Positions 40,903-63,459 of a stretch of DNA of 64,000 bases are shown in pieces. A program made the translations under genes and the position numbers. This DNA comes from a virus. The notes below the pieces were generated by a model that saw only the letters and a program-made list of their open reading frames with translations, made no database searches and was not told where the DNA came from. The DNA lies in the UHGV virus genome UHGV-0286546; one strand, written 5' to 3'. Numbering within the stretch: the first letter of the stretch is position 1; the number at the start of each line of letters is the position of its first letter.

Positions 40903-40904
40903 GG

Positions 40905-41660: not shown

Positions 41661-42318
41661 GACAATTATTATGACATGTATAGAAATTATAAACTAATCC
41701 TCCCGCACTAAAACATTGTGATTGCCAGGTGTTATAACAGTTTGAAATTGTATTGTTCATTGAATTAGCAGAAGCTAGACCTTCTTTTACAATTTCAGTA
41801 GGAGGTGTAACATTAGGAGCTGTATTACCTTTTCTTTCCCAAAATTCCGTTTTAGATTGATTACCATCAGCACCACCAGGAACAGCAGGAAAAGCAGTAT
41901 TAAAAATACCACCACCACTTATACTTTGGATTAAATTTCTTGTACCTTCAGTTTTATGATACCAGTTTGTAGTAAAATAACGAATTTTACTTAAGGTTCG
42001 TACTATTCTTAGCATATTATCCCAAAGAGTAGAAGCTGTAATAATTTGATCAGAAATAGTCCAAGTTGGTTGTGCATCTATAGCAGCTAATTGATTACCA
42101 GGCATTGCAACAGGATTAGTCCAGCCTAATGTTGCCCAGTTTCCATTGTTACCTGTTTTACCATAATAAGCAGTACCTGTAAAATAAGGAATGTTACCAC
42201 TATGATATTGAATTTTACTATAAATAGTTGCTGTAACTCTAGTATTGAATTCGTTAATAGCACCGATTAAATTATCTCTAGAAACTTTTACAATAAGTTG
42301 TTGTGCTGGAATTGTCAT
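41626..42318 (-). CDS. Gly/Asn/Thr-rich protein with C-terminal 6-Cys tail; candidate rSAM substrate
   Basis: 230 aa. The last 38 aa are NCYNTWQSQCFSAGGLVYNFYTCHNNCHGSCYSNRGRR (6 Cys, a basic terminus). Embedded between rSAM genes. Confidence 0.4.
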   Translation of the reverse strand: MTIPAQQLIVKVSRDNLIGAINEFNTRVTATIYSKIQYHSGNIPYFTGTAYYGKTGNNGNWATLGWTNPVAMPGNQLAAIDAQPTWTISDQIITASTLWDNMLRIVRTLSKIRYFTTNWYHKTEGTRNLIQSISGGGIFNTAFPAVPGGADGNQSKTEFWERKGNTAPNVTPPTEIVKEGLASANSMNNTISNCYNTWQSQCFSAGGLVYNFYTCHNNCHGSCYSNRGRR

Positions 42319-42319
42319 T

Positions 42320-43243
42320 TTAATTAACCTTCATTTTATTTAACAAATAATATAGCCCTGAACAATACGGTTTATCGATTTCAATTAGATGCTCTGCTTT
42401 ACATTTAGTGAAATATTTACAGTCTTTACAATTTTTATTATACCAAATCTTTTCTTCGTTACAAAAATCTTTCCACTGCTGCAAGGTTTGAAATTCAACC
42501 GGATACTCTATACTTTCTTTATATTTAATTGAACTGAAATTGCCGTTTGGATTAAGAAAAACGAAACTATCTGCTAAAGGTGAATACTTTGAATCTCTTA
42601 GAATTATTTCATTACAAATAGTAAATTTATAATTATGTTTATTCTTTTCATGTATAATTTTATCTAAAAATAAAATATAATCCTTTGTAGTAATATTATA
42701 AACTTTTTTTGAATAAATTGAAGGATGATACTGTATAAAATTTACATCAAAACCCAATTCTTCATACATGTCTAGCAAAGTAAAAATGTTTTCGTTGAGT
42801 AATGACGGTAAAACGACAACAGATAAACTAATTATTGGTAAATGTTTAAAGTTTTTTAAATTTAACAATGTTTTTTCATAAAAAGGTCTTTCCTTATTTA
42901 AGGATATACCACAATTACAATTATTTAATAAACAGAATTCTAAAATTTTAGTATTAGAAAAATTTGTAATAAAGGTAGGTTTTATATTTTTTATTAATTG
43001 ATACAAATCATATAAATACGAATCATCTAATAAAGATATTTCTCCACCATATATTGTAGAGCTTTCAATTATATATTCTTTTTGTAATTCAGTTAATCTA
43101 GTTGATAATTTTTCCAAAGATAATAAATTTTTATTTTTTGTTAAATTACCTAAATAACAGTATTCACAACTGTAATTACAATAAAAAGAAGGCATAATAG
43201 AAATATTACTTAATGTTTTTAGCATTTTTATATTCTTCGACAA
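42320..43243 (-). CDS. Radical SAM enzyme with Cys-rich C-terminus (family B)
   Basis: CNYSCEYC near the N-terminus, YGGEISLL, and a C-terminal CNEEKIWYNKNCKDCKYFTKCKAEHLIEIDKPYCSG. Confidence 0.85.
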   Translation of the reverse strand: MSKNIKMLKTLSNISIMPSFYCNYSCEYCYLGNLTKNKNLLSLEKLSTRLTELQKEYIIESSTIYGGEISLLDDSYLYDLYQLIKNIKPTFITNFSNTKILEFCLLNNCNCGISLNKERPFYEKTLLNLKNFKHLPIISLSVVVLPSLLNENIFTLLDMYEELGFDVNFIQYHPSIYSKKVYNITTKDYILFLDKIIHEKNKHNYKFTICNEIILRDSKYSPLADSFVFLNPNGNFSSIKYKESIEYPVEFQTLQQWKDFCNEEKIWYNKNCKDCKYFTKCKAEHLIEIDKPYCSGLYYLLNKMKVN

Positions 43244-44291
43244 AATTATTGTTGTTTTCTAAAAATTCGTACAATTGTTTAAAAGGACAATTTGTAGTTT
43301 TATAATTTTTGTATAGAATAGAAGTCCAACAAAAGCGTGGACATTGCATAAAGTATTTACAGTAGACGCATCCTCTTTTATTTTTACCTAAATTTGCTTT
43401 TATTTGTGAAACATTGTCTTCTGATATTTTTAAATTTCCATAAAAGTCTTCGTTTGGTAAAATAGATGATGTTTTTACACAGTTATATGTTACGCAATCT
43501 TTACACGCAGAAAGATGCTTATGACAACCACATATAAATTCTTTTTCTCTTTCTGGAAAACAAAAACTGTTTAAAATTTTTTGTAAATCTAATATATTAT
43601 AAAATTTATTGATTAAACAGGTTTTAAAGAATAAGAAAAGATCATCGTCACTAGGTAAGAGAGTTTTCCAGTTTATATTTGGAATGTAATAATTAATGTC
43701 TATTTTTTGTGTAAATTGTAAGTTTTGTAAATGGGTTAAATTATTACAATATTCAAGTATATTAGGTTTTGTAAGTGTAATTGATATTTCTTCCAATAGA
43801 TTAAGAGAATTAAAGTACTTTGCATTTGTTAGCATTAAATTTTTTTGTTCTTCTGTTTTAAATCTATCTATTGGATCGTAACTTATATTTAATTTACTGT
43901 TTGTATCGTGTAATAGTTTTAAAACTCTATCAGTCTTTTTATATACACCATTAGATACCCATAAAAAGATTAAAGTAATATCTGGAAAGACTTCTTTGAA
44001 TACTTTTTTGAAATTTGAAATTAGTTTCCTATATTCATCAAAAAGGGTATCCGGTAAAGCATCATAAAATAGTTCACCACCCCACATTCTAATAGCAATC
44101 TCTTTTGTATTTGGATATTTTTTATATTCTTCTTTAAATCTATCCACTAAAAGTTGAGGTATAGAATGAATCCAATTTAAATCTATTTTAGTATTTTCAT
44201 GCGCTTCTAAACAAAATTTGCATCTTAAATTACAAGCTTCGAATAAAATACAATCAAAACCAAAACGTATATCTTGAGAACTAGTAACCAT
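43206..44291 (-). CDS. Radical SAM enzyme with SPASM-like domain (family B, tandem paralog 1)
   Basis: CNLRCKFC, WGGELFY, and a C-terminal region with at least 9 Cys (ICGCHKHLSACKDCVTYNCV...GCVYCKYFMQCPRFC). Confidence 0.85.
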   Translation of the reverse strand: MVTSSQDIRFGFDCILFEACNLRCKFCLEAHENTKIDLNWIHSIPQLLVDRFKEEYKKYPNTKEIAIRMWGGELFYDALPDTLFDEYRKLISNFKKVFKEVFPDITLIFLWVSNGVYKKTDRVLKLLHDTNSKLNISYDPIDRFKTEEQKNLMLTNAKYFNSLNLLEEISITLTKPNILEYCNNLTHLQNLQFTQKIDINYYIPNINWKTLLPSDDDLFLFFKTCLINKFYNILDLQKILNSFCFPEREKEFICGCHKHLSACKDCVTYNCVKTSSILPNEDFYGNLKISEDNVSQIKANLGKNKRGCVYCKYFMQCPRFCWTSILYKNYKTTNCPFKQLYEFLENNNNFVEEYKNAKNIK

Positions 44292-45393
44292 TTCGCCAAT
44301 CCAAATAATCTATTAAAACTTCTTTATTGTTTTCAATATACTCATAAACTCTTTTATAAGGACAAATCGTAGGTTTAAACTTATTAAAAACAATTGCAAT
44401 CCAACAAAACATTTGACATCTGTTGTAATACTTACATGTTAAGCATCCTCTTTTTTGTAAACCTAGGGTTGCTTTTATCTTATTTGTATTTTCTTCTGTA
44501 ATGTTTTGTGTATATTCACCATAAAAACTTTCGCGTGGTAATAAAGAACTGCAAGTTGCACAATCTACACTCCATTCACCGTGTGTAATTTGAGAACAAT
44601 ATTGACAATCACAATATTTCGAAATGTTATCTTTACAGAAATATTGGAATAGCCTTTCTAATACTTTAATTTCATATAATTTGTTTTTAATAGCCCATTC
44701 AAAAAAGCTAAATATCTCTTCGTCAGTTGGCAGCAATTCTTCCCAGTTTGGATTTGCGATATAATAATTTAAATCTATATTATATCCGAGTTCTTTGAAA
44801 TACTTTAAATGTGATTTATCATTTATAAAAGCTTGAATTGAAGATTTTGTTAAAGTAATTGATATTTTCTTACCAACATTATTTTCTTTAAAATATTTAG
44901 CAGATTCTAGCATAGTATTCAATTGAGTTTTAGTTTTAAATCTATTACAAGGATCATAACTCAAATTGATTATACCTTTTGAATAATTTACTAGATCTAA
45001 TACTCTTTTTCTTTTATTGAATACTCCGTTAGAAAGCCAAGAGAACAGAATATTAAGTTTAGAGAAATGTAATTTAAAAAGAGAATTTATATTATCAACA
45101 AATTTATAATAACTATTAAAAATTTCATCCGATAAAGAATCGAAAAAGATTTCTCCTCCCCATAACATTAAATATACAGTTTTTATAGAAGGATATTTTT
45201 CATATTCTTTTCTAAAATTATCATAAATAATGGTATGTAAATTTTCAATGTATTTAGTATCTATCTTTTTGTTTATGTGTGATTCAAAACAAAAATTACA
45301 TTTTAGATTACAATTTTCAAAAAACATACAGGCAATTTCATATGATTCTGGCTCTTTGTAAAAAGGTATAATTGGAGGAGTTACTTTTTCCAT
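44281..45393 (-). CDS. Radical SAM enzyme with SPASM-like domain (family B, tandem paralog 2)
   Basis: CNLKCNFC, WGGEIFF. Collinear similarity to 43206-44291 throughout (e.g. LSWLSNGVFNKRKRVLDL vs LWVSNGVYKKTDRVLKL). Cys-rich C-terminus. Confidence 0.85.
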   Translation of the reverse strand: MEKVTPPIIPFYKEPESYEIACMFFENCNLKCNFCFESHINKKIDTKYIENLHTIIYDNFRKEYEKYPSIKTVYLMLWGGEIFFDSLSDEIFNSYYKFVDNINSLFKLHFSKLNILFSWLSNGVFNKRKRVLDLVNYSKGIINLSYDPCNRFKTKTQLNTMLESAKYFKENNVGKKISITLTKSSIQAFINDKSHLKYFKELGYNIDLNYYIANPNWEELLPTDEEIFSFFEWAIKNKLYEIKVLERLFQYFCKDNISKYCDCQYCSQITHGEWSVDCATCSSLLPRESFYGEYTQNITEENTNKIKATLGLQKRGCLTCKYYNRCQMFCWIAIVFNKFKPTICPYKRVYEYIENNKEVLIDYLDWRNGY

Positions 45394-46457
45394 TGTAAAT
45401 ACCTCTTAATAATATCTGGATTATTCTTTATATACTGTCTTATTTTTCTATGCGGGCATTCTTGTAAAATGTAATCTTCATGACAAAGCTGCATCCAACA
45501 GTACATACTACAATTATTATAATGTTCACATAAAAAACAATTTCTTTTTGTCATACCTTTCTTAGTTATATATTCTACTGCATCTTCTTCTTTTATATGT
45601 TTAAAATCTTTTCCATAAAATTGAATTAAATCTAAAGAAGGAATATAAACATTACAGCTATAATGTAATTTATTTTCATAAAAAATGACTGTATTTTTAC
45701 AATTACATGCTTTCGTTATTTTTTTATTTGAGTCTAAAGTATTTTCAAGTAAACTTTGTAAATAAATACAATTAAAAATGTCATTATCTAATAAAGTCTT
45801 AAAGAATATAAAAATATCTTCGTCTGTCGGTAGTAAAAAATCTTTATTTTTTGTTGGTACATAGTTATTGATATCTAAGTTTATATTTTCAAATACTTTT
45901 AGCTGTTTTGGATCTTCAACATAGTTTTTTATTGCAGGTTTTGTTAAGGTAATAGCAACGTTTTCGATTAAATTGTTATTTTTTAATTCATTGAAGTTAT
46001 TTATAAATAATGATCTTTGTTTTTTTGAAGTAAAGCGTCCAAAGGAATCATAAGATAGGGTTATCTTAGAATTTATATCTTTTAAAAAGTTTATTACTCT
46101 TTCTATATTATTATAAATACCATTTGACATTACATGACATTGTATTTTAATTTTATGAGTAGAGTACTGAGATAAAATGATATCTTTGTAGGCATTTATA
46201 AATTCATCAGAAATGCTATCTTGAAATAGTTCGCCACCTCGAATAGAAAGTTTTAAGATTTTAGTGTTTGGATGTTTTTTTAAGAGTGCTGATATAAGTA
46301 AATTTAGCCTATTAGGTAAACTCTTTAAATAATCTATACTTATTTCTTTTTGTGTATGATTTTGAAAACAATGTAGACAATTTAAATTACATTTTTCTAA
46401 CAGTACACAATCTATTGAAAGAGTATTATTTTTTAATGTTTCGTAATCTATATTCAT
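45381..46457 (-). CDS. Radical SAM enzyme with Cys-rich C-terminus (family B, tandem paralog 3)
   Basis: CNLNCLHC, RGGELFQ. Same architecture as the two preceding genes. C-terminal CNCKNT...CFLCEHYNNCSMYCW. Confidence 0.85.
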   Translation of the reverse strand: MNIDYETLKNNTLSIDCVLLEKCNLNCLHCFQNHTQKEISIDYLKSLPNRLNLLISALLKKHPNTKILKLSIRGGELFQDSISDEFINAYKDIILSQYSTHKIKIQCHVMSNGIYNNIERVINFLKDINSKITLSYDSFGRFTSKKQRSLFINNFNELKNNNLIENVAITLTKPAIKNYVEDPKQLKVFENINLDINNYVPTKNKDFLLPTDEDIFIFFKTLLDNDIFNCIYLQSLLENTLDSNKKITKACNCKNTVIFYENKLHYSCNVYIPSLDLIQFYGKDFKHIKEEDAVEYITKKGMTKRNCFLCEHYNNCSMYCWMQLCHEDYILQECPHRKIRQYIKNNPDIIKRYLQWKK

Positions 46458-47244
46458 GATAAAGTGTTTTTGGAAAACTACATTCTTTTTGTAAAATGCA
46501 AGGCTTACAAATATTTGCCAGCTTACAACTTAAACATTGTTGTAAAACATTAGTTTGTGTATATTGGGGACATCCCTTTTTCAATATTCCACTCGGTGTT
46601 AAGGTATATGTTTTAGAACAATCACAATTCCAATCAATTAAATTTTCGAATAAAAGATTTTTAAATGAAAACGACCAATCTTTAGATATTTTACATAACC
46701 AATTATCAACTCTTTCGTAAAATTCAGCTTTTTTAGAATTATCAACTAATTGTTCAAATTTTACACCAGTTATAGACTTTATCTTATCCAGTTTACTCAA
46801 TATTGTTAAAAAGGTATTATAATCACAATTTATTAAGTCTTCCGTTAAAGTAATTAAAATAATACAAGAAAGGTTGTATTGTTCCAATAGTTTTAAATTG
46901 TCTATCCAAATATCAAATTGTTTCGGGGTGAATCTAGTTTGATTCCAAGAGGTAGCAATATCTAAATCATAATCTTTTATTAATTTTAGAGAAGTTGCAT
47001 TTAATAATAATAGATTGGTTGAAATAGAGCTTATTTTTTTTGTTTCTAGGATAGGTATTAATTTTTCTTGTAGTAACAACGGTTCTCCACCAAACAGTAT
47101 CCCACGGTCGAAAAAAAGTGTCTTTAATTGTGATATAAATACAGATTCATTATATCTTTCTACTTTTTTATGTAATTCGCAGTGTGGACAGTCTAAATTA
47201 CAAGAGTATGTTGGAATGATGTATAATTCTTTTATAGTTTCCAT
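46426..47244 (-). CDS. Radical SAM enzyme (family B, shorter, 272 aa)
   Basis: CNLDCPHC, FGGEPLL. C-terminal CDCSKT...CPQYTQTNVLQQCLSCKLANICKPCILQKEC. Confidence 0.85.
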   Translation of the reverse strand: METIKELYIIPTYSCNLDCPHCELHKKVERYNESVFISQLKTLFFDRGILFGGEPLLLQEKLIPILETKKISSISTNLLLLNATSLKLIKDYDLDIATSWNQTRFTPKQFDIWIDNLKLLEQYNLSCIILITLTEDLINCDYNTFLTILSKLDKIKSITGVKFEQLVDNSKKAEFYERVDNWLCKISKDWSFSFKNLLFENLIDWNCDCSKTYTLTPSGILKKGCPQYTQTNVLQQCLSCKLANICKPCILQKECSFPKTLYHEYRLRNIKK

Positions 47245-48188
47245 CCTGTCCTCATAATTATTTCTTTTCTTTTGAGCATTTCTGCGCAGTGATTTTTAGT
47301 TTGCTTGTTTGTGTTTCTTAAAGAGGTACAGGCATTACACAAATTACACAATTCACAGGTCAAGCATTTTTCACTTAATAAAGTATTTATATCTAATTTT
47401 TCTTTAGTTGGTATTACTTTTTTTGTGTCGAGTGGTAAAGTCAAGCCAGAAGTTCCACAATCTTCACACCAACTGTATGTAATTTCATTTGTATTAGATA
47501 GCCAAAATGCTCGAATGGTTGATTTACAGGAGAGATTGGTATTAAAGTTACATCCTCCATTATAAAATTGTATTTTGGTATCTTGATATTTATCTAATCC
47601 TAATTCTTTAGCTTTTAACCATATATCAATCATTTTATATAAAGGATAAAAATTTTTTGATTTACCAAGAGCTAACGTCATGTTTAATTTACATTTGGTG
47701 TTTAATTTTTTGGCTAAATGTAAGTGATCTAATGCTTGTTTTTCGTTTGCATTGTTTATAAGACTGATAAAAGGTGGTACATATCCAATTCTTTCTTTGA
47801 ACATAGTCATGACTTTAATAAACATTTCTTCGGTATATGGTGTATTTTTATCCCACAATCTATCATTACCATATTGAAAAGAAGTACCAATGCCTAACCT
47901 TTTATTTTTAAATAGATTTTCCCATTTCTCGGGATAAAAATAAAAATCCTTTAAATTCGTTGTAAAAGCAATGTTAAATTCACCGAGTGTTAGTATTTCT
48001 TCGTAATAACTTGGATTAACACATAAAGGATCACCACCAGTAAATATTAATCCATCTGGTTTTATAGTATTAATTACTTTTTTTAATTCTTCTGGAACTT
48101 TTGTCTGATGTTTTATATTAAGAAGACCAGCACTACAGAAAGTACAATTAAAGTTACAGCGACCAGTCGGTTTTATTATTAGTTCCAT
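47232..48188 (-). CDS. Radical SAM enzyme with SPASM-like domain (family B)
   Basis: CNFNCTFC, FTGGDPL. C-terminal CEDCGTSG...CLTCELCNLCNACTS...HC. Confidence 0.85.
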   Translation of the reverse strand: MELIIKPTGRCNFNCTFCSAGLLNIKHQTKVPEELKKVINTIKPDGLIFTGGDPLCVNPSYYEEILTLGEFNIAFTTNLKDFYFYPEKWENLFKNKRLGIGTSFQYGNDRLWDKNTPYTEEMFIKVMTMFKERIGYVPPFISLINNANEKQALDHLHLAKKLNTKCKLNMTLALGKSKNFYPLYKMIDIWLKAKELGLDKYQDTKIQFYNGGCNFNTNLSCKSTIRAFWLSNTNEITYSWCEDCGTSGLTLPLDTKKVIPTKEKLDINTLLSEKCLTCELCNLCNACTSLRNTNKQTKNHCAEMLKRKEIIMRTGWKL

Positions 48189-48639
48189 CGATTAGAAATT
48201 CCTTTTTAAAGTAATTTATTGTCTTAAGTATAGAGTTATATTGCCAGATGTTTCCTATTTTTAGGAGAATTTTGTCATATTCTTTTTTATATTTACTGTA
48301 TTTGTAGTCTTTAAAATATTTATCATCTGGTAGTAAGTCGTCATCATCTAATGCTTCATAAAAAGGTACTTTAAAAAATTCTTCTAAACATTTAGCATAA
48401 ATAATGGCTACAAATATAGTTTTTGCTGGATAGACTAATTTAGATTCTGTTTTAAAAAATTTAATTACTTGATTAGGTATGTTTTTATAATTAACCGTAT
48501 AAGGTAAATTTATATCATCCCACTCATGTAATAAATATGATAATTGTCTTTTTTCTAATAGAGTTTTATTCATGTTTACTAGAACTTTAGAGTTTAGTTC
48601 TATTATAATAAGATCTTTAAAATATATTGGGATATACAA
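48154..48639 (-). CDS. Hypothetical protein, first gene of minus-strand rSAM operon (161 aa; start uncertain)
   Basis: The track ORF starts at a TTG at 48639 with no obvious Shine-Dalgarno. An internal ATG at 48571-48573 is an alternative start. No motif. Confidence 0.3.
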   Translation of the reverse strand: MYIPIYFKDLIIIELNSKVLVNMNKTLLEKRQLSYLLHEWDDINLPYTVNYKNIPNQVIKFFKTESKLVYPAKTIFVAIIYAKCLEEFFKVPFYEALDDDDLLPDDKYFKDYKYSKYKKEYDKILLKIGNIWQYNSILKTINYFKKEFLIDGTNNKTDWSL

Positions 48640-49324: not shown

Positions 49325-49876
49325 ATGTCATTACCAGTAGTTAGTTACCAAACTATTATCAATCAGTTAAAGAGTTGGATTTTAAGTAATTGTTATAACT
49401 TTGATACAACAGTTGCAAATTTACCAGCAGAGTTTAAAGCTGGATATGCTAATTCTCAACGCTTTGCTGGAAATGATACTGCCAATTCAAATTATAGAGT
49501 TACCATTAGTAGCGCAGTACCTGTTTTTTCGCCATCAGTCTTTGAAACGCAATTAACAGAATTTATGACTAAAGTTAATTTATCTGATAAACTCTCTTCG
49601 AATATTGTAGAAAGTGAATTTTTTGATTTAGTCTTGAATTTAATATCATTTTGCTCAACCAAATTAAACTTTGCCAGTAGTCAGTTTAATAGTAATAAGT
49701 ACTTAATATACAATGGAAATAATACTGTATACACGTTTATCTATCAAATATCATCATTAGAAAAAGAAAAATTGATAAAAGCTGACGATTATACAAATTT
49801 GTTAAACCAGATATTACTTGTTTCTAAGCAAAATATACGAACTTTTACATGTAAATATACAATAACTCTTTCTTAA
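49325..49876 (+). CDS. Partner protein of the poly-Ser protein, paralog 1 (183 aa)
   Basis: Starts immediately after the stop of the poly-Ser gene. Related to 60524-61078 (M-x-LP-x-(V/I)-(S/T)-YQ N-terminus, ANLP/NLP motif, C-terminal ...YTITLS vs ...SYTLS). Confidence 0.5.
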   Translation: MSLPVVSYQTIINQLKSWILSNCYNFDTTVANLPAEFKAGYANSQRFAGNDTANSNYRVTISSAVPVFSPSVFETQLTEFMTKVNLSDKLSSNIVESEFFDLVLNLISFCSTKLNFASSQFNSNKYLIYNGNNTVYTFIYQISSLEKEKLIKADDYTNLLNQILLVSKQNIRTFTCKYTITLS

Positions 49877-50461: not shown

Positions 50462-51340
50462 ATGAGAAATCTTAAAATGGAATATAAAAAAATATATGAA
50501 TTTTTAGTTTGGGATAATTGTAATAATAATTGCTCTTTTTGTTTTCAGCGAGAAGCACCCAGATTATTTAATCATCAAAAACGTGCATTTATATTAGATG
50601 AAGTTATAAATTTTATTCAAAGTGATAGATTTATAAAAGGTAGTCATATATTAGTTTGCGGTGGTGAAATATTTGATAAACCACAAGATAATCCTCAACT
50701 AAATAACTTTTTTTCTAAAATAATAACATTGATGCTGGATAATGTTATTGATTTGTTATATCTTAATACGAATCTTATCTATAAAGATCTTACAGGTTTA
50801 AATTTTCTTTTACAAATAATAAAGGACAACAACTTATTTGATAGGTTAAAATTTACAACGTCTTATGATTTAGAAGGACGCTTTAGAAAAGAAGAAGATA
50901 AAGATTTGATGCTTTCTAACTTAAAATGGATAAATAATACATATCCAGACTGTAAGATTGTTGTAAATACTATCTTAACAAAACAAGTATGTGAAGCTCT
51001 TATAAATGAAAGTTATAAATTAAGTACTTTTATGAGTGAATATAAGTGTTGGGTTAATTTAATTCCGTATATTGTATTAGATAATAAATTAACAGCTAAG
51101 CGTTCAGATATTTTCAAAGCTTTAAAAATAGTAAATAACGATTGTCCAGGATATCTTTCTAAGTATGTACCAAACATGTCTATAACTCAAGAAAAGCTGT
51201 TATATATGTATAAGGACAATGAATTTAAATTTTGTAGTTGTGATATAGATAAATGTGGTCATTCTATTAACTTCAAAAGATATTCTGATAAAGGAACTTG
51301 CTTTTGTTGTGATTTAATTGAGCTGTTTAAAGGAATATAA
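50462..51340 (+). CDS. Radical SAM enzyme, family A (W-x2-C-x3-C-x-F-C type)
   Basis: LVWDNCNNNCSFCFQ, CGGEIFD, and a C-terminal CSCDIDKCGHSINFKRYSDKGTCFCCD. Confidence 0.8.
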   Translation: MRNLKMEYKKIYEFLVWDNCNNNCSFCFQREAPRLFNHQKRAFILDEVINFIQSDRFIKGSHILVCGGEIFDKPQDNPQLNNFFSKIITLMLDNVIDLLYLNTNLIYKDLTGLNFLLQIIKDNNLFDRLKFTTSYDLEGRFRKEEDKDLMLSNLKWINNTYPDCKIVVNTILTKQVCEALINESYKLSTFMSEYKCWVNLIPYIVLDNKLTAKRSDIFKALKIVNNDCPGYLSKYVPNMSITQEKLLYMYKDNEFKFCSCDIDKCGHSINFKRYSDKGTCFCCDLIELFKGI

Positions 51341-51343
51341 AAA

Positions 51344-52357
51344 ATGAAAGAGGCTTTAGAATATTGGTTAAATTATAAAAACATACCAGAAAAAGAATTA
51401 ATACAATTAAATACTATTCGTGAAGAAAATAAACAATTTTACAATGAAAGTAAGTATAAATTGTTAGAAGATGACTTGTTTGATAGAATGCCTTTTTGTC
51501 AATTGAATTCAAAAAATGCGCACATTACAGTAAGTACGTGTGCAAGCGAATTGATAGAAAAATTGTTTGAAACTTTTGTAGACGAGGATACTCTTATAAT
51601 TTCTTCTTCTGTTGAACATACTACTGTCGTTAATGAAAAAAGTAAACGAAAAAATGTTTATGACTTACATTACTACGAAGAGATAAAGGCATTAAATTTT
51701 AGTAAATTAAAGAATATTATAAAAGGTTTTAAAAAAGTATTTGTATATATCATTGGTGCTCAAATCTCAACAGGAGAAATAACGACACAGGTATTTTTTA
51801 AAAAATTAAAGCAAACACTAGATGAAAATAACATCAAATCAATTTTTGTTTTGGATGACGTACATGGAATGTATATTTATCCTAGAGATTATTCTTTTTT
51901 CAATTTTATTATAGGTACTGCACATGCATTAATAAGACCTTATGATATGGGAATTCTCATTCATAATGATACTTTAAATAAAAAAGAATATGAAATTGGT
52001 GAAAAAGTATATAATTGGGTTTATCAATATATAACAAAATTAGATATGATCTTGGAGCGTAAAGATAAATTATTTATGTTAGGACAGATTCTAAACGAAT
52101 ATTTTGCTAAATACACAGACTTTCAAAGATATACCGATAATATTCCAAATATATATGCAATTAAAACACCATATAAAACTTTTACACAAAAAATGTGGGA
52201 TAATTTAGACGCTTATGAAATTCGTTTAGAAATAGCCAATAAAGCACAAGGCGGAATCATTAGATTTAGAGCACAGCAATTTATTACGTTTCCTGATTAT
52301 TTGTTAAAGGGTTTAAACGTATTAGATAAAATCTTATATACTTTACAACACTTTTAA
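51344..52357 (+). CDS. Class-V PLP-fold (NifS/IscS cysteine-desulfurase-like) protein, possibly lacking the catalytic Lys
   Basis: Collinear matches to IscS: ITVSTCASELIEKLF ~ IVFTSGATESDNLAI; IISSSVEHTTVV ~ HIITSKTEHKAVL; IIGAQISTGEI ~ IMHVNNEIGVV; VLDDVHG ~ YHVDATQ; IIGTAHALIRPYDMGILI ~ MSFSGHKIYGPKGIGALY. The Lys of the SGHK motif is replaced by Ala in this by-eye alignment. Confidence 0.5.
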   Translation: MKEALEYWLNYKNIPEKELIQLNTIREENKQFYNESKYKLLEDDLFDRMPFCQLNSKNAHITVSTCASELIEKLFETFVDEDTLIISSSVEHTTVVNEKSKRKNVYDLHYYEEIKALNFSKLKNIIKGFKKVFVYIIGAQISTGEITTQVFFKKLKQTLDENNIKSIFVLDDVHGMYIYPRDYSFFNFIIGTAHALIRPYDMGILIHNDTLNKKEYEIGEKVYNWVYQYITKLDMILERKDKLFMLGQILNEYFAKYTDFQRYTDNIPNIYAIKTPYKTFTQKMWDNLDAYEIRLEIANKAQGGIIRFRAQQFITFPDYLLKGLNVLDKILYTLQHF

Positions 52358-53019
52358 TCTTTATGATTATTAAGTTCGTTAAATAAATCTAAGTAAATAG
52401 TATTTTTTAACAGAAGTGGTTGAAAATATCTAATTGCATCTTTAATATAAAAGCATTCTGATATTTCAAAAGATTCACTCGTTGAAAATATTCCACTCAG
52501 TGTTAATAGATCGATATTTAAAAAGATGTTTTTGTATGTTTCAGGCAAGTCAACACATTTGTCTGTAGGAAGAAAAGTAGTTTTATTATAGGATTTTATT
52601 AAAGAGATAAAATACATTGATAATTTTTTGTTAAACTCTTTGATTTCATCTTTTAGGTTTAATCGTAAGTCTAACATATCCTCGATAGACGAAATATAAA
52701 TGTTTTCATTCATAAAGAAGGAATCGTCTAGAGTATTATATGTTTTAATTAAATTTAGGATATTGAGGAGCATTAAAGAATCTTTTAAGTTTTTATAATT
52801 TAATGCAAATTTTAATCCTTCTGTAATTAATTCAATGTCTAAACCTTTTAAATTAGTTAAAAAGATATCTTTTGAATTTTTATATTCAGATTCAAAAATT
52901 ATATTTAAGTTTTCTACTAATTTCTCGGCAGTGATACTTGGGCTAAATGTAATTTCATAAGTCTCCTGAGTATCGATTTTTTTCTTTTCGATTGTTGTGT
53001 CTTCTAATACCAAATTCAT
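52354..53019 (-). CDS. Hypothetical protein (221 aa), paralog of 61761-62465
   Basis: Shares long near-identical stretches with 61761-62465 (KKLSMYFISLIKSYNKTTFLPTD vs KQLSMYFISLIKSYSKTTFLPTD; MLLNILNLIKTYNTLDDSFF vs MLLNIINLVKVYNTLEDSFF). Confidence 0.45.
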   Translation of the reverse strand: MNLVLEDTTIEKKKIDTQETYEITFSPSITAEKLVENLNIIFESEYKNSKDIFLTNLKGLDIELITEGLKFALNYKNLKDSLMLLNILNLIKTYNTLDDSFFMNENIYISSIEDMLDLRLNLKDEIKEFNKKLSMYFISLIKSYNKTTFLPTDKCVDLPETYKNIFLNIDLLTLSGIFSTSESFEISECFYIKDAIRYFQPLLLKNTIYLDLFNELNNHKD

Positions 53020-55965: not shown

Positions 55966-57272
55966 GTGTACCCTACGATTATAATTATACAACACTAAAT
56001 AATATACAGATTCATGTCACAGGTTGTGGTTTAGCGGAATACGACGCCAAGTGCTTTGCTTCTACTTTGCCTACAGACGAAAAAGCAATCGTTTTTGGTA
56101 CTTGTTCTTTTTTGAAAGAAAGAGAAATCGAGAATATGATTATCTTAAAATTATTATCATCAGTTTATACAGATTATACTTTTTATTTATTAGGATGTGA
56201 CATAAATAACAATAGAAATAGATATTTAAAATACGGTAAAGTTTTTTCTAACCAAGAAGTAAAAGCAATTATAAATAACAATAAATTAAAAGTAATAACT
56301 AGCTTAAACAATAAAGTTAGAATAAAAATACAAGATGGATGTAAAAACAATTGTAGTTATTGTATAATTCACAAATTGAGGAATGATTTATTTTCTGTTC
56401 CATATTCAAAAATTTATGATTCATTACTCAAATTAAATACTTTAGATACAATAGAAGAAATCGAATTTTCTGGTGTAGAAGTTTGTTATTATTACGATAA
56501 AGAAAATAAATTTGGATTAGTACAGTTATTAGATAAAGTAATTAAAGATTTTCCAAAGATAAAAAATATAACATTAACAGCATTAGATCCTGCTGCTAAA
56601 AATATATTCGATATTTTAGAGTTTGTATCTTTACACCGTGATAAATTTCTATTACCTTTGAATTTGGCTGTACAATCAGGTTGTCAAAAAACGTTAAATA
56701 ATATGAACAGACATTATTCTGTAGAAAGAATAATTGCAATCACAAATGCTGCAAATCAATATAAAATTCCGTTAAAATGGGATATTATCGTCGGTTTTCC
56801 AGGAGAATCAGAAGAAGATTTTAATGAAACTAAAAAGTTAATGCAAGATTTAATGATAAATACTGCAAATGTTTTTATATATTCACCTAGAAAAGGAACA
56901 GAGACTTATCTCAAGAAACAAGTACCAAATCTAACTAAACATCAACGTCAAAAAGAATTACTGAGTATGTTAGATAAAGTAGAAAATATATCAAGCGGTA
57001 ATGAAACTAAAAAGTTGATACAAGATCTAATGATAAATAATAATATAATATATTTACGTAAATTTTCAGATATTGTTAATTTTGTAAAGTATCCAAATTT
57101 AGATACAATGATTTGTTTTGATTATACACAAGATAATTATTCAGAGATTATAATTAACTTCTTAAAAGAATACTTTAAGGACATAAAATTAATTGTAAAT
57201 ATACCCAAAGAAAAAAATATAGATAAAAAAGACTTTGAAAATAAATTTATATGTAAAGTAAGATTTGTTTAA
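55962..57272 (+). CDS. MiaB/RimO-like radical SAM methylthiotransferase (N-terminal MTTase domain plus rSAM core)
   Basis: The N-terminal IQIHVTGCGLAEYDAKCF resembles the MTTase N-domain Cys cluster region. The rSAM motif is CKNNCSYC. Contains an internal repeat (ETKKLMQDLMIN at aa ~290 and ETKKLIQDLMIN at aa ~347). Confidence 0.65.
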   Translation: MSVPYDYNYTTLNNIQIHVTGCGLAEYDAKCFASTLPTDEKAIVFGTCSFLKEREIENMIILKLLSSVYTDYTFYLLGCDINNNRNRYLKYGKVFSNQEVKAIINNNKLKVITSLNNKVRIKIQDGCKNNCSYCIIHKLRNDLFSVPYSKIYDSLLKLNTLDTIEEIEFSGVEVCYYYDKENKFGLVQLLDKVIKDFPKIKNITLTALDPAAKNIFDILEFVSLHRDKFLLPLNLAVQSGCQKTLNNMNRHYSVERIIAITNAANQYKIPLKWDIIVGFPGESEEDFNETKKLMQDLMINTANVFIYSPRKGTETYLKKQVPNLTKHQRQKELLSMLDKVENISSGNETKKLIQDLMINNNIIYLRKFSDIVNFVKYPNLDTMICFDYTQDNYSEIIINFLKEYFKDIKLIVNIPKEKNIDKKDFENKFICKVRFV

Positions 57273-57769
57273 TATAGAAAGACTTTTAATTCTTTATATC
57301 CATTGTTTAAATCTGTTATTTCATATGCCCGTTGTAAATTATCTAAAGATTTTACTGTAACTTTGTCATCTCGGTAAATATTCAAACCCGTTGCACTTTT
57401 AATATCTATAACGTTATTAGCTGAATAAGCAGAAATTATTTTGCAAACTAATGTATCTTTTGGGATAAGTAAGTCAGAAGTTTCATTGTTAATAATCTTT
57501 AATTTAAATTCTATGTTTTCTTCTGGATATTCTATATGAAATCTTTCGGTATAAATCGGATTTAACTTAGAATCTTCATACCATAACTCACCAGTAATAA
57601 AGCAAATGTCTTCGATATTTTTACAAGAAATAAATAAACCAGTGTTTAATTCAAAAAGTTGATTCTTTTTAACTACAATATCTTTGTTTAATATAACATA
57701 CTTTTTATCTAATCTATTTTTATCATCTTGTAAATAGATTACATCTGCTTTATTTTCAAATACTATCAT
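57269..57769 (-). CDS. Hypothetical protein (166 aa)
   Basis: Complete ORF overlapping the upstream rSAM gene by 4 nt. No motif. Confidence 0.3.
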   Translation of the reverse strand: MIVFENKADVIYLQDDKNRLDKKYVILNKDIVVKKNQLFELNTGLFISCKNIEDICFITGELWYEDSKLNPIYTERFHIEYPEENIEFKLKIINNETSDLLIPKDTLVCKIISAYSANNVIDIKSATGLNIYRDDKVTVKSLDNLQRAYEITDLNNGYKELKVFLY

Positions 57770-58735: not shown

Positions 58736-59581
58736 TTAATTTTTGTAATCGATTAAAGATAATTTTTCGATTTTTCCTGTCGATAATAATTTAATATTTT
58801 CTTTTAACATTCTTTTTTCATTAGATTCTAATAAATCTAAACTGGGTAAGTTTGCTTCATTTGTAAAGATATTCCATTTTGTTATATCTTCGTTCAATAT
58901 AGTTTTTATTGGTACATTTTGAGGTTCAATCTCTAAGGGAGCAAAGTAAGATTCTCCTACAAGAGAAATGGTATTTTTAATGATTGGTTTTTTAGAAAGC
59001 CAATTACCATCTTTGTCAACCATCGCTAAAAACCAATCTGAATCGTCTAATAAAACAATATCGTTGTTTCTATTTATAGCATAATCCGAAAATTTATTAA
59101 TACAATCTCTAATTACTTTTAAATCATAAACGTCTGGATAAGTTTCTTGGATTTGTTTAATAATAAGCTTTAATTTTAATTTACTTTCCAAAATTTTTAA
59201 TGTTTTTCCCCAATTTAGTAACAATTCTTCAAACGATAAGTCTTCTGGTGAGCAAACTTTTAAAATTTCTCTTTGTTCTACTTGGTATAAGATTCCATCG
59301 TTTTCTATTGTTTTAACATACCAATGAATATTAAAAACTTCTCTGTATATTTCTGCTAATTTCTCTCGTATTTTTTCAAAAAATCTACCCGAATGTCTAT
59401 CGATAGTGTATACTTTATAGAAATAATCTTTTGTTCCTATGACTAATTGATGTTCGTAATCTTTCCATTTTACTGATAATTCTGGATGAACATTCTCATC
59501 TAAAGATCGAATAATACTAAAAAATTTTTTAGTCGATGTTTCTTTTAAATCGAGTTTTTTCCAAGAAATTAATTCATTCAC
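58736..59581 (-). CDS. Hypothetical protein (281 aa)
   Basis: Complete ORF between two family-A rSAM genes. No motif. Confidence 0.3.
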   Translation of the reverse strand: MNELISWKKLDLKETSTKKFFSIIRSLDENVHPELSVKWKDYEHQLVIGTKDYFYKVYTIDRHSGRFFEKIREKLAEIYREVFNIHWYVKTIENDGILYQVEQREILKVCSPEDLSFEELLLNWGKTLKILESKLKLKLIIKQIQETYPDVYDLKVIRDCINKFSDYAINRNNDIVLLDDSDWFLAMVDKDGNWLSKKPIIKNTISLVGESYFAPLEIEPQNVPIKTILNEDITKWNIFTNEANLPSLDLLESNEKRMLKENIKLLSTGKIEKLSLIDYKN

Positions 59582-60504
59582 AAAAAGGCTTCTCCATCTA
59601 AATTTTCTAAATCACAAAGCATGCATTTATCTGAATCTGTATAACATTTATATAGAACAGAATGTCCACATTTAGGATTTATATCTTCTTTTCCGTCTGT
59701 TAGTTTTGGTGCTTCTGTATAATCATTTGATCCTCGTTCTTTTACACCTGTATATTTAAAAACACATGAATTTTTTGTAGATTGTAAAAATGATAGATAT
59801 ACAACCGGATTTGCACTTTTTAAGTATCTAATAAATCGTAAGAAGTCAGAACGTTTGAAATTAAAATCAGGAAGTGTATAACCTGTTTCGATTGGGTGTG
59901 GATATAAAAAGCATAATTGATTGCCCGGAATGTTTTCTTCAATAAACTTATTTACATCAAAGTTATTATTTTTCCATTCATCTATAACGTACTGGGTGAG
60001 TATCATTTGAACACCAACGCTATAATTATACTTTTTATGAAAGTCGTTGATATTCTTTAAACAGAGTAATCTAGCTTTTTCGTCTTTGAATCTGTATTTT
60101 AAATCATAAGAAAAGTTAATATCTACTTTTTGTATACCAACTGCATTAACAATTTTATCAATTACTTTATATAAAAACTCCGGATTATAAAGTCCGTTCG
60201 TAACAGTCGAATATCTACACTCTGGATTTTTTGATACTTTTAAAACTTTTTCGATAATAAGATCAATTAATTCTAAAAAGGAATCTTGTACTTCTTTATC
60301 TTGAATGAAATATAATTCACCGCCGAGAAGTGAAATACCATAACTAAATTGATTTTCCCAATCTACATAATCTAAGTTTTTCTTAATTTTATTTAATTGC
60401 CAGAGCTGTTTTTCTTTAGAATATGGAATTCTTTCTCGGCGTAAACAAAACTTACATTCGTTGCAGCAATTAGACCAAACCGCATATTGAACCATATTTC
60501 CCAT
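59578..60504 (-). CDS. Radical SAM enzyme, family A
   Basis: AVWSNCCNECKFC (CxxxCxxC counted from the first Cys), LGGELYF. C-terminal CGHSVLYKCYTDSDKCMLCD, parallel to 57766-58722 and 50462-51340. Confidence 0.8.
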   Translation of the reverse strand: MGNMVQYAVWSNCCNECKFCLRRERIPYSKEKQLWQLNKIKKNLDYVDWENQFSYGISLLGGELYFIQDKEVQDSFLELIDLIIEKVLKVSKNPECRYSTVTNGLYNPEFLYKVIDKIVNAVGIQKVDINFSYDLKYRFKDEKARLLCLKNINDFHKKYNYSVGVQMILTQYVIDEWKNNNFDVNKFIEENIPGNQLCFLYPHPIETGYTLPDFNFKRSDFLRFIRYLKSANPVVYLSFLQSTKNSCVFKYTGVKERGSNDYTEAPKLTDGKEDINPKCGHSVLYKCYTDSDKCMLCDLENLDGEAFL

Positions 60505-60523: not shown

Positions 60524-61078
60524 TTATGATAATGTATATGATATTTTTACCGGAACTACACGTATATATCCTTCATTTCTAACCATAATAGAAATTAAAT
60601 TTTCAATAATAAGTTTAGTATCTGAAACATCTATCATTTTTTCAACAGAAGGTACGTTTTTAATCCAATCTGATTCGTTTGCCCAATATATTAAGTATTT
60701 GACTAGTGAAGAAGTATCTTTATTATAGCGTGAAGATACAAAAGCCAATTTGGTTGCAGCGAAACATGCCAAATTGTTTAAATACGGATAAAAATCTTCT
60801 GGTGCTATTATTCCAGAAGGTGAACCAATAACTTGTAAAAACGCAGTCATATCTGTATCTACTTTTGATGTAGGAATAGCAAATTTAACAGGACTACTAA
60901 CAATACCAGTTACTTTTTCAACATATGCCCCACTACCAGAAGAGGCGGCTTCAAATTTAAAACCGTCTTTAACACAAGCATGCATACCACCATAATTAGC
61001 AATGTTTGCGCAATTGGTTTTCATCCAATTTTTTACAAGGTCACTCAAAGACTGATAGGTTATCGTTGGTAACGGCAT
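60524..61078 (-). CDS. Partner protein of the poly-Ser protein, paralog 2 (184 aa)
   Basis: MPLPTITYQSLSDLVKNW... resembles MSLPVVSYQTIINQLKSW... (49325-49876). Both end in (S/T)-LS after a Y/T-rich strand. Confidence 0.5.
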   Translation of the reverse strand: MPLPTITYQSLSDLVKNWMKTNCANIANYGGMHACVKDGFKFEAASSGSGAYVEKVTGIVSSPVKFAIPTSKVDTDMTAFLQVIGSPSGIIAPEDFYPYLNNLACFAATKLAFVSSRYNKDTSSLVKYLIYWANESDWIKNVPSVEKMIDVSDTKLIIENLISIMVRNEGYIRVVPVKISYTLS

Positions 61079-61771
61079 TTAAATATCCATATATGCTATA
61101 AAACTTGAAGATGATGATGAACTACTTGATGAACTACTAGAAGAAGACGAGCTTGAAGATGAACTACTAGAAGAACAAATATAAGATAAAACAGTAGAAA
61201 TCAAATGAGTATTATTTGTTGTACCTAATGCATTTAATAGATCTGTCAAAGAACTATTTACTTCTGAAGGTGAAATGTCAATAGAAGTAGAATTTAGACT
61301 ACACGTCGGAAAAGATGTTGCTTTTGAATTATAAAATATACGCGTTTCACCAGTAATAGCGCTTGTGACATAAACTAATTTTATAGACATAAAAGATGCT
61401 AAGTTATTATAAAATGCTAACATAGTTTTATATGAAACCGGTGTATTTGACTTTTCATATATAGCACGCGACTTTAAAAATGATAATAATTGATTTTCAA
61501 CTGTTGAAGCTGGAACAGCAATAAGTAAAGAATCATTTATTGTTTCTTTAACAGTTGAAGTATGTGCACTCCTTGCAACATTTCGAAATCCTGTTGCTGA
61601 CATTTTTGTTTCGGAATAGGTTTTGCTTATTCTATTAATAATTTGACCATTCTTAAAAGTTGTTGGTAAATTAGGATTTAAGCTATCTAAGTTTACACAA
61701 CTCGTTTTTAAAACTTTAAGTGCATGTTTGATTAAGTCGTCATAGGTTACTACGGTGTTTTCATTCAGCAT
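61079..61771 (-). CDS. Poly-serine-tailed protein, paralog 2 (230 aa from ATG 61769-61771; 25 Ser then FIAYMDI-stop)
   Basis: The internal Met (MLNENTVVTYDDLIKHALKVLKTSC) aligns with the N-terminus of paralog 1 (MNDIITYQEILDTALNRIKQKC) and has an AAGGAAAG Shine-Dalgarno ~8 nt upstream. The track ORF extends to 61825. Confidence 0.6.
   Translation of the reverse strand: MLNENTVVTYDDLIKHALKVLKTSCVNLDSLNPNLPTTFKNGQIINRISKTYSETKMSATGFRNVARSAHTSTVKETINDSLLIAVPASTVENQLLSFLKSRAIYEKSNTPVSYKTMLAFYNNLASFMSIKLVYVTSAITGETRIFYNSKATSFPTCSLNSTSIDISPSEVNSSLTDLLNALGTTNNTHLISTVLSYICSSSSSSSSSSSSSSSSSSSSSSSSFIAYMDI
61103..61177 (-). repeat. Poly-Ser coding tract (25 Ser codons, mixed agt/tca/tct/tcg/agc)
   Basis: Read codon by codon on the minus strand. 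Followed by codons for F-I-A-Y-M-D-I and a TAA stop at 61079-61081. Confidence 0.8.
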
Positions 61772-62465
61772 CTTTGCTTTCCTTGATAGTTTCAGTATCT
61801 TTAATCTCTTTAGCAAAATTTTCAAATAAATTTAAACCGACTGAATTCTTTAAGAACAAAGCGCTTAAGCATTCCATAGCATCAATTATATATGGACAGC
61901 TCGCTGTATCAAATTGTTCACCTGCAGCAAAAATACCAGATAATGTATAAAAATCTGTACTTAAAATAATTGATTTGTATGCAGCAGGCAAGGATATATA
62001 TTCGTCGGTTGGTAAAAAAGTGGTCTTGCTATAAGATTTAATTAAAGAAATAAAATACATTGATAATTGTTTAGAAAATATATTTAATTCATCTCGTACT
62101 TCTAACCTAACGTCGATTAGATCATCTATTTCATTAAAGTAAATATTTTCATCTTCAAAAAAGGAATCTTCTAAGGTATTATATACTTTAACTAAATTTA
62201 TGATGTTAAGGAGCATTAAAGGATCTTTTAATGTTTCTCTACTTAACGAAATACGTAAAGCTTCAATAATTAAATCAATATTTAAATTTTTTAACCTTGT
62301 AAGAATAATATCTTTGAACTCATCAGACTCTTCTAAAGTATAGATTTTATTCAAATTGTCTAAGAGTTCGTCGGTTGTAATATTTTTATCAAAAGAAATA
62401 GTATATTCAGTTTGTTCTTCTAGTGATTTTTTTGTAATGTTTGCTTTTACAAGGTTTAAATTCAT
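61761..62465 (-). CDS. Hypothetical protein (234 aa), paralog of 52354-53019
   Basis: See 52354-53019. Its stop overlaps the poly-Ser paralog start by 11 nt. Confidence 0.45.
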   Translation of the reverse strand: MNLNLVKANITKKSLEEQTEYTISFDKNITTDELLDNLNKIYTLEESDEFKDIILTRLKNLNIDLIIEALRISLSRETLKDPLMLLNIINLVKVYNTLEDSFFEDENIYFNEIDDLIDVRLEVRDELNIFSKQLSMYFISLIKSYSKTTFLPTDEYISLPAAYKSIILSTDFYTLSGIFAAGEQFDTASCPYIIDAMECLSALFLKNSVGLNLFENFAKEIKDTETIKESKDAE

Positions 62466-62547: not shown

Positions 62548-63459
62548 ATGAAAACAGCAATTCGTATTGAACTCATACCACTATATCGTTGTAATGAAAA
62601 TTGTAATTTTTGTTTATATCAGCATGAAAAAAATAACAAAAATACAGCAGATTTAGCATGGATAGATTCAACCTTAACTTCATTGCACTTTAAGTATGAT
62701 ATTCTTCAAATAAAAATTACTGGAGGTGAAATATCTTTACTTTCAGACTTTTACTTTGAGATGCTATTTAACTTATTAAAAATACATTGCAAAAAAATCA
62801 TTGTAGAAACCAATTTCGTTGAATTTAAGAAGGCTTTAATTAACAACTGTGATATAATAAACATAGGATATAATTTCAATAATAATCCTTTACAACAGCA
62901 GATTTTTAATAATATTAAAGCGGCTACAGCAACTGGAAAAAGTATAAATATAAAGTCCTTAGATATTTTTTGTAAAATAAATCATAATCAAATTATAAAT
63001 CATTTAAATTCACTTAAAATTAAATCCTGGGAGATTATACCTTTTCATCAGACACCATTTACATTATATAAATTTAGAGGATATTCAGAGTATGAAAAGA
63101 TTGTTGCTGAATATCTTAAATTGTCAAACAAGATGAAATTTGCTTTTCAAAATAAATTACAACTAGAGAATATTTTAAATCTTGATAACTATAACGTTAA
63201 AACAGTATATTTAACTCCTAATAATAAACTTGCTCTACAAAATTTTGATAATGATAACAACTTTTTCTTAGAAGAATTTGATAATGTTGAAGATTTATCT
63301 AAAAAAATGAAAGAAACGGAAAAAAAGAAAGATAAATTTTGTGAAAAGTGCACTTCTAAATTACAGTGTATGGCAAATAGTTTTATGAATTTGAATTATA
63401 CCGGACTCTCATGTAGTGGATTTAAAGATTTAATAAATAAGCATAAAGGTGGGCTGTAA
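62548..63459 (+). CDS. Radical SAM enzyme with Cys-rich C-terminus (family B-like)
   Basis: LYRCNENCNFC, TGGEISLL. C-terminal CEKCTSKLQCMANSFMNLNYTGLSCSGF. Confidence 0.8.
   Translation: MKTAIRIELIPLYRCNENCNFCLYQHEKNNKNTADLAWIDSTLTSLHFKYDILQIKITGGEISLLSDFYFEMLFNLLKIHCKKIIVETNFVEFKKALINNCDIINIGYNFNNNPLQQQIFNNIKAATATGKSINIKSLDIFCKINHNQIINHLNSLKIKSWEIIPFHQTPFTLYKFRGYSEYEKIVAEYLKLSNKMKFAFQNKLQLENILNLDNYNVKTVYLTPNNKLALQNFDNDNNFFLEEFDNVEDLSKKMKETEKKKDKFCEKCTSKLQCMANSFMNLNYTGLSCSGFKDLINKHKGGL

Follow-up and report, generated by a model that had tools for sequence, protein, structure and literature searches.

At one end of the 64,000-nucleotide stretch of viral DNA analyzed here (UHGV virus genome UHGV-0286546, hereafter the window), a minus-strand gene encodes a protein with three parts, a predicted folded domain, a run of serines, and a hydrophobic heptapeptide at the free C-terminus. 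The gene belongs to a multi-gene module comprising a partner protein (termed og3), the tailed protein, a tail-less ("short") paralog of the tailed protein, and radical-SAM genes, and this module is present twice in the window (modules A and B; Table 1). The 38.9-63.5 kb part of the window holds about 14-16 ORFs with an N-terminal CxxxCxxC motif, whereas the rest carries baseplate, portal, GroEL, and related genes of a myovirus-like phage; the GC content is 29%. No tRNA gene was found, and a scan for promoters and terminators gave nothing above chance. In the following, L001 to L024 denote contigs or proteins from other assemblies, P0001 and similar labels denote other family members, and W1 and W2 denote the two tailed proteins of the window.

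Table 1 Features of the two modules and the surrounding radical-SAM genes.
Position	Strand	Feature	Observations
61079..61771	-	Ser/Cys-tail protein, module B	230 aa plus stop; hit by the family profile
61175..61771	-	N-domain of the tailed protein (aa 1-199), predicted folded, alpha/beta	
61103..61174	-	Run of 24 Ser, preceded by one Cys	Mixed TCN and AGY codons; predicted disordered, pLDDT below 50
61082..61102	-	C-terminal heptapeptide FIAYMDI	Followed by the stop at 61079-61081
60524..61078	-	Tail-less short paralog of the same family, module B	184 aa; its ATG directly follows the TAA of the tail gene; 28% identical to the module A short paralog
61761..62465	-	Partner protein og3, module B	234 aa; overlaps the tail gene start by 11 nt; 53% identical to 52354-53019; 232 database homologs; AlphaFold2 pLDDT 87.9 with no PDB relative
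59578..60504	-	CGH-type radical-SAM gene, directly downstream of the short paralog	CxxxCxxC near the N-terminus, GGE and SYD..RF motifs, C-terminal CGH-x-Y-x-D-x-C-xx-CD motif; weak PF04055 hit; syntenic in all loci
58736..59581	-	281-aa ORF inside module B	No family hit; present in L020 but absent in the close relatives L017/L018
57766..58722	-	Second CGH-type radical-SAM gene of module B	
57269..57769	-	166-aa conserved small ORF ending module B (og11)	Homolog in L004; present in L017-L020
48644..49324	+	Ser-tail protein, module A (paralog 1)	226 aa; ends S29-T-FIAYMDI
49325..49876	+	Short paralog of module A	
50462..51340	+	CGH-type radical-SAM gene of module A	
51344..52357	+	Conserved 337-aa protein og2	One copy per locus; no Pfam or PDB hit
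52354..53019	-	og3 partner copy belonging to module A	
38895..48188	-	Seven radical-SAM ORFs plus three ORFs of no assigned function	Four with SPASM-type CX2CX5CX3C C-termini (38895, 43206, 44281, 45381); block syntenic with L014
53117..57272	+	Three more radical-SAM ORFs and a MiaB/RimO-family methylthiotransferase (55962-57272)	One with a SPASM domain (54949-55965), the fifth SPASM-type gene, outside the 38895..48188 block
62548..63459	+	Radical-SAM ORF divergent from module B	

The original prediction was that the module B gene is a poly-Ser paralog ending in 25 Ser and FIAYMDI, with terminal codons that differ only synonymously from those of paralog 1. This observation holds with small corrections. 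The protein ends ...HLISTVLSYIC, 24 Ser (not 25), FIAYMDI, and paralog 1 ends ...INYI, 29 Ser, Thr, FIAYMDI. The heptapeptide codons are TTC/TTT, ATC/ATA, GCA/GCA, TAC/TAT, ATG/ATG, GAT/GAT, and ATT/ATT, giving 3 synonymous and 0 nonsynonymous differences (18 of 21 nt identical). Identical DNA at the two C-termini had been named in advance as the sign of gene conversion; it was not observed, and gene conversion is excluded because the tip differs at 3 of 21 nt and the Ser tracts, 96% identical in amino acids, are only 60% identical in nucleotides. Both tracts mix AGY and TCN codons, two unrelated Ser codon boxes, which rules out a DNA-level repeat or slippage origin. The remainder of the two proteins is 38% identical (36% by BLASTP with the low-complexity filter, 43% including the tract), with pS of 0.60 and pN of 0.43 for the N-domains. 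Seven of seven identities at a 38% background would arise by chance with a probability of about 1e-3, and the same peptide recurs in dozens of homologs. These are the only two Ser runs of 6 or more residues in any of the six frames of the window.

Because the comparison of the paralogs is saturated at synonymous sites, we retrieved close orthologs of the module B gene from four other assemblies, from pig gut and other sources (L017-L020). All are 230 aa and start at the same Met (the ATG at 61771), which supports the reading frame, and the N-domain shows a dN/dS of about 0.17 at a dS of about 0.3. The tract keeps 24 positions (S24, or S23 plus T) while its codons change, including an apparent AGT-to-TCA box switch, and the heptapeptide shows two synonymous changes (ATA/ATT, GCA/GCC) and none that alter the protein. 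The gene is real and its tip is under strong purifying selection.

In order to define the family, we first performed a word-indexed search, which found three homologs, all ending in a Ser/Cys tract plus FIAYMDI. An exhaustive HMMER search with an N-domain profile then found 384 protein clusters at E of 1e-3 or better, 246 of them at 1e-10 or better. Among the 150 listed, about half carry the tail, about a third are the short, tail-less type ending ...IRVxPCKYTFTLS, and a few carry a Gly-rich globular domain instead of, or as well as, the tail. A scan of IMG/VR with the full-length alignment seeded on the poly-Ser pattern and returned nothing useful, so the N-domain alone was used.

In the 76 cluster representatives that carry a tail, which share less than 50% identity, the tract is 83.4% Ser and 16.1% Cys, all other residues together make 0.5%, and the length is 9-30 (median 21). 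The terminal motif is [FY]-I-[AVG]-[YF]-M-x-[ILV], usually preceded by one hydrophobic residue, and 57 of the 75 proteins in which it could be located end exactly there. The heptapeptide is the most conserved element of the protein, although it tolerates conservative swaps (Y/F, M/F/I, A/V/G). Cys is not randomly placed: it is found at position -7 from the motif in 33% of cases, is also enriched at -13, -19, and -21, and is rare at -2 to -6. The two copies in the window are unusual in having 0 or 1 Cys in the tract. The "poly-Ser" label hides the fact that in most family members the tract is Ser/Cys.

We examined the genomic context of the tailed gene in contigs from Logan, ENA, IMG/VR, and GTDB, many of 106-287 kb (L001-L004, L007, L008-L014, L015, L016, L023, and L024). 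Wherever the contig extends far enough, the tailed gene has og3 beside it, usually a short paralog after it (absent in L016), and 2-12 radical-SAM ORFs next to it. In all 14 distinct lineages examined (the two modules of the window, L001-L004, L007, L008, L013-L016, L023, and L024), the gene lies in large phage-like contigs beside an og3 partner of about 232 aa and arrays of 2-16 radical-SAM genes. These lineages include members only about 33% identical to the window protein (L015, L016), and the coupling persists across rearrangements and inversions. In each module of the window the TAA of the tailed gene is followed immediately by the ATG of the short gene. The short proteins are homologous to the tailed proteins over their whole length but stop where the Ser tract would begin. 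MAG labels for the host conflict (Succinivibrionaceae versus Bacilli).

The two copies are not each other's closest relatives. W1 is closest to P0011 and L008 (42-43%) and W2 to P0001 (50%), whereas W1 and W2 are 36% identical, and the short paralogs behave the same way. L024, a 249-kb contig, carries both module types in tandem, with both tails ending TFIAYMDI, and the Succinivibrionaceae-labelled contig closely related to the window also has both og3 copies. A recent in-genome duplication was therefore rejected: these are two old lineages, the "duplication" is ancient or acquired, and the shared heptapeptide is a trait of the family rather than of this genome. The interpretation given in the original prediction, purifying selection on a duplicated gene with both tract length and heptapeptide constrained, is thus only partly supported. 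The genes are homologs and the heptapeptide is strongly selected, but a whole module rather than one gene is present twice, and tract length is only loosely constrained, being 26 versus 21 in two otherwise identical proteins (L005 and L006), although fixed at 24 positions among close orthologs of the module B gene. What is tightly constrained is composition, Ser or Cys only, which could not be seen from the copies in the window.

The radical-SAM type that is always adjacent has a distinctive C-terminal motif, CGH-x(6,7)-Y-x-D-x(2,3)-C-xx-CD, and no SPASM motif; its only detectable similarity is a weak N-terminal match to viperin and MoaA, which act on nucleotides, and PDB profile searches gave only weak viperin N-terminal hits. 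SPASM-type genes were seen only in the window and its IMG/VR relative L014. In the window, five ORFs carry CX2CX5CX3C, and 54949-55965 passes the SPASM domain cut-off (TIGR04085). The ORF 38895-39872 aligns full-length to models of peptide-modifying rSAM/SPASM maturases (DynA, 4e-18; PapB, 5e-14; anSME, 6e-12), all below the curated equivalog cut-offs. No small precursor-like ORF is visible near the SPASM genes. The MiaB/RimO-family enzyme was considered as acting on the Asp of YMDI, but this was dropped because the enzyme is absent from the other loci and the Asp is not conserved.

Searches of Pfam, PHROGs, NCBIfam, and PADLOC with the tailed protein, the short paralog, og3, and og2 gave nothing, and PDB profile searches with og2 and og3 were also negative. 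Despite confident AlphaFold models, neither the N-domain nor og3 has a PDB or viral-structure relative. The invariant residues of the N-domain are hydrophobic or Asn, so that it looks like a scaffold or binding domain rather than an enzyme. A blastn search of GenBank phages (INPHARED) with the region and tblastn searches with three family members gave no match, so no cultured relative was found, and we found no published description of the system.

Three facts need to be explained together: a tract that accepts almost only Ser and Cys, a hydrophobic peptide at the free C-terminus that is more conserved than the folded domain, and the linkage to radical-SAM arrays. Our preferred but tentative hypothesis is that the heptapeptide at the end of the C-terminal peptide (SSSSSFIAYMDI-COOH) of this protein of large tailed (jumbo-type) phages is a docking handle, probably binding as an added beta-strand to the co-encoded radical-SAM enzymes, to og3, or to both. 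Docking would place the adjacent tract at a radical-SAM active site, where Ser and Cys, chemically interchangeable CH2-XH side chains, would undergo hydrogen abstraction, with oxidation to formylglycine as done by anaerobic sulfatase maturases, epimerization, or thioether cross-linking as candidate outcomes. In this view the protein would be a protein-sized, RiPP-like substrate whose recognition element follows the core, and the N-domain would probably pair with the short paralog. The analysis establishes the three-part layout, the pattern of selection, the family, and the obligatory gene neighbourhood, whereas docking, modification of the tract, and the type of chemistry are inferred.

The conserved neighbourhood, the overlap and abutment of the og3, tail, and short genes, which suggest translational coupling, the presence of SPASM-type enzymes in the cluster, and the predicted disorder, hence accessibility, of the tail favor this hypothesis. 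Thr, Ala, Gly, Asn, and Pro are as accessible from Ser codons by one mutation as Cys is, yet they are purged, which argues for a requirement that Ser and Cys share, and the Cys placement points the same way. A near-invariant tip is also expected for a peptide that must fit several partners. On the other hand, the universally adjacent CGH-type enzymes have no SPASM motif and resemble, weakly, enzymes acting on nucleotides, SPASM-type genes were seen only in the window and L014 lineage, and no RRE/PqqD-like recognition domain, fused or stand-alone, was found. No leader protease or exporter was detected by Pfam among the ORFs of 35-64 kb. The conservative swaps in the motif fit binding but give no reactive residue, the variation of tract length, even between near-identical strains, is unusual for a defined RiPP core, and phage gene order can be conserved without functional coupling. 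Near-pure polyserine linkers with no known modification exist in bacterial carbohydrate-active enzymes (PMC2386152), so that composition alone does not prove chemistry.

The main alternative, which we consider doubtful but only slightly less likely, is that the tract is a passive, flexible, hydrophilic tether, chemically unaltered, and that the tip is a docking peptide recruiting partners to a scaffold formed by the N-domain and the short paralog, or linking subunits by strand exchange. The predicted disorder of the tail, its variable length, the tolerant hydrophobic motif, the precedent of polyserine linkers, the absence of catalytic-looking invariant residues in the N-domain, and the modular replacement of the tail by Gly-rich domains, typical of scaffold or structural proteins, all agree with this view. 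However, the almost total exclusion of Thr, Gly, Asn, Ala, and Pro while 16% Cys is accepted is stricter than flexibility requires, the positional preferences of Cys are not explained as well, and the constant radical-SAM neighbours are not explained. It is unlikely that the long and short paralogs instead form a structural hetero-oligomer of the virion or its assembly (such as a decoration, fibre adaptor, or internal protein, with the C-terminal strand plugging into a neighbouring subunit), the radical-SAM arrays serving another purpose, e.g. nucleotide or DNA modification or counter-defence, within a merely shared genome block. The large insertions in the N-domain (P0002, P0003), the fusions to Gly-rich domains of a kind found in phage fibre and adhesin proteins, the viperin/MoaA-like matches, and the myovirus-like structural genes of the window would fit such a role. 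Nevertheless, the modules lie outside the structural block (2.7-35 kb) and inside the enzyme block, the coupling with og3 and the radical-SAM genes persists across lineages sharing only 30-40% identity, no PHROG structural family matches, and no viral protein model is structurally similar.

A persulfide or Fe-S relay arm, helping to mature the many phage Fe-S enzymes together with the PLP-type enzyme (PF01053) present in L001 and L007, is very unlikely. Cys occurs in most tails, but the two window tails, with no Cys and one Cys, are both conserved, Ser dominates, and there is no similarity to IscU, SufE, Nfu, or TusA. Other affiliations were not supported either. A glycyl-radical C-terminus would require R-V-x-G-[FWY] with an invariant Gly, whereas the corresponding position is Ala in 48, Val in 15, and Gly in 12 of 75 proteins, with no Arg. 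No LanB/LanM dehydratase or YcaO cyclodehydratase family, as expected for lanthipeptide, thiopeptide, or TOMM precursors, occurs by Pfam in any ORF of 35-64 kb.

If the tail is a radical-SAM substrate, large gut phages carry a widespread and unrecognized protein-modification pathway, with 384 clusters of the tailed family and more than 230 sequences of its partner. This would extend RiPP-like chemistry to phages and give a function to a large block of "hypothetical" genes, and the tail-plus-tip design might be reusable as an engineering tag. Even as a tether, the system defines a new, strongly conserved putative peptide-docking motif and two new predicted folds, and xS(n)-[FY]I[AVG][YF]Mx[ILV]-COOH is a simple key for finding such modules. 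A more far-reaching possibility, which we regard as unlikely, is that these proteins define a new kind of virus-encoded post-translational chemistry, in which a homopolymeric Ser/Cys tail on a folded carrier protein is processively rewritten by a battery of phage radical-SAM enzymes, e.g. into a poly-formylglycine, poly-D-Ser, or thioether polymer, with the C-terminal peptide as the processivity handle. The product would serve the phage during infection as a cross-linker, a polyanion or DNA mimic, or a cofactor-like species, a protein-sized RiPP analogue with no counterpart in cellular systems.

Several known systems share part of this design. The polyserine linkers of Saccharophagus degradans and Cellvibrio japonicus carbohydrate-active enzymes are long, nearly pure Ser runs separating functional modules (PMC2386152), but they join two folded domains of secreted enzymes, whereas here only 7-8 residues, predicted unstructured, follow the tract, 16% Cys is admitted, and the phage protein has no apparent signal peptide. 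SSB likewise combines a folded domain, a disordered linker, and a conserved C-terminal tip acting as an interaction hub, and many potential enzyme partners are encoded near the tailed gene, but the N-domain matches no OB fold and the tip is hydrophobic rather than acidic-hydrophobic. Long-leader RiPP precursors (proteusin/NHLP and Nif11-type) also attach a large, domain-like part to a short modified C-terminal region and use radical-SAM tailoring enzymes; however, there is no sequence or fold similarity to nitrile-hydratase or Nif11 leaders, no cleavage motif, and the core is a homopolymer. Anaerobic sulfatase-maturing enzymes (anSME), acting on Cys- or Ser-type sulfatases, represent the only well-known radical-SAM chemistry that treats Ser and Cys as equivalent substrates, and 38895-39872 and 54949-55965 align end to end with the anSME model (TIGR03942, E of 6e-12 and 2e-6), but the scores are far below the family cut-off (45 versus 349 bits), the tail, with no Pro or Arg, lacks the C/S-x-P/A-x-R sulfatase motif, and the target would be a homopolymer rather than a single residue.

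The closest systems are the radical-SAM/SPASM peptide-maturation systems with low-complexity Cys/Ser/Gly-rich precursors (SCIFF and ranthipeptides with CteB/PapB, and the Cys-every-fifth, CXXX-repeat, His-Xaa-Ser, and Gly-rich-repeat systems defined in NCBIfam/TIGRFAMs). There too, a protein with an unstructured, Cys/Ser-rich C-terminal region is encoded beside radical-SAM genes, with several maturases per cluster; in the phage system, genes with SPASM auxiliary-cluster motifs were seen only in the window and L014 lineage. In the phage system, none of the NCBIfam equivalog cut-offs is reached, the always-adjacent radical-SAM type lacks SPASM, no RRE was found, and no protease or exporter was detected by Pfam among the ORFs of 35-64 kb. 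The phage system differs further in that the putative precursor has a folded domain of about 200 aa and a tail-less paralog, the conserved element follows rather than precedes the tract, the tract is a mostly Ser homopolymer of variable length, up to about 16 radical-SAM genes occur per cluster, and it is encoded by large phage-like contigs.

The region surrounding the two modules of the window shows a very large expansion of radical-SAM genes for a phage, with about 14-16 ORFs carrying CxxxCxxC in 25 kb, which fall into at least three C-terminal types (SPASM-like, "CGH", and other). Between the two radical-SAM genes of module B lies a 281-aa ORF that is present in the window and in L020 but absent in the close relatives L017 and L018 (all three being loci that carry close orthologs of the module B tail gene); it is an accessory insertion or deletion.

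We also examined the junction between the tail gene and the downstream short paralog. In both window modules, the TAA of the tail gene is followed directly and in frame by the ATG of the short paralog (TAAATG), whereas other lineages use a 1-nt overlap or a 1-nt gap instead, so programmed read-through is not a conserved feature. The best sigma-70-like match in the region (11 of 12) is located inside the gene of the partner protein og3, about 115 nt upstream of the tail gene; however, the total number of such matches is no higher than in shuffled sequence. Next to module A, a 161-aa ORF is the only local ORF with a clear PHROG match (phrog_20737, E 5e-16), a family of unknown function.

Coordinates of the features in the window and in two contigs carrying tailed homologs (L005 and L006).
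Location	Coordinates	Strand	Feature
Window	30740-32386	-	GroEL-type chaperonin
Window	38895-63459		Radical-SAM gene expansion
Window	48154-48639	-	161-aa ORF next to module A
Window	49322-49327		TAAATG junction of tail gene and short paralog
Window	51344-52357	+	Conserved protein og2
Window	55962-57272	+	MiaB/RimO-family radical-SAM methylthiotransferase
Window	58736-59581	-	281-aa ORF of module B
Window	61079-61081 / 61076-61078		TAA of tail gene / ATG of short paralog
Window	61885-61912	-	Best sigma-70-like match
L005	396-1124		Tailed protein, Ser tract of 26
L006	396-1109		Tailed protein, Ser tract of 21

Outside the window, the tailed proteins of L005 and L006 are otherwise identical and differ only in the length of the Ser tract, showing strain-level length polymorphism. 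Some other family members (P0086, P0109, P0112, P0126, P0148, P0099, and P0143) fuse or insert a Gly-rich globular domain ending ...GGxGYVKI..., and P0143 has both that domain and the Ser/Cys tail. The phage module is also carried by contigs filed in GTDB/NCBI as bacterial MAGs ("uncultured bacterium", "Bacilli", "Succinivibrionaceae"), namely L023 (CASEYV010000001.1, 283 kb), L024 (JAZNQD010000009.1, 249 kb), and L022/L025 (JBJFGR010000069.1, 52 kb). These contigs are probably binned phage genomes, and their conflicting labels give no reliable host.

The phage encodes a GroEL-type chaperonin (phrog_5725, E 2e-127), as well as a MiaB/RimO-family radical-SAM methylthiotransferase (TIGR00089, E 2e-48, below cut-off) that, among the loci compared, is present only in the window lineage. 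The protein og2 is a conserved 337-aa protein found as one copy per locus in all lineages, with no Pfam or PDB match; by appearance of the sequence alone, its invariant "DDVHG...GTAHA" stretch is reminiscent of fold-type-I PLP enzymes lacking the Lys.
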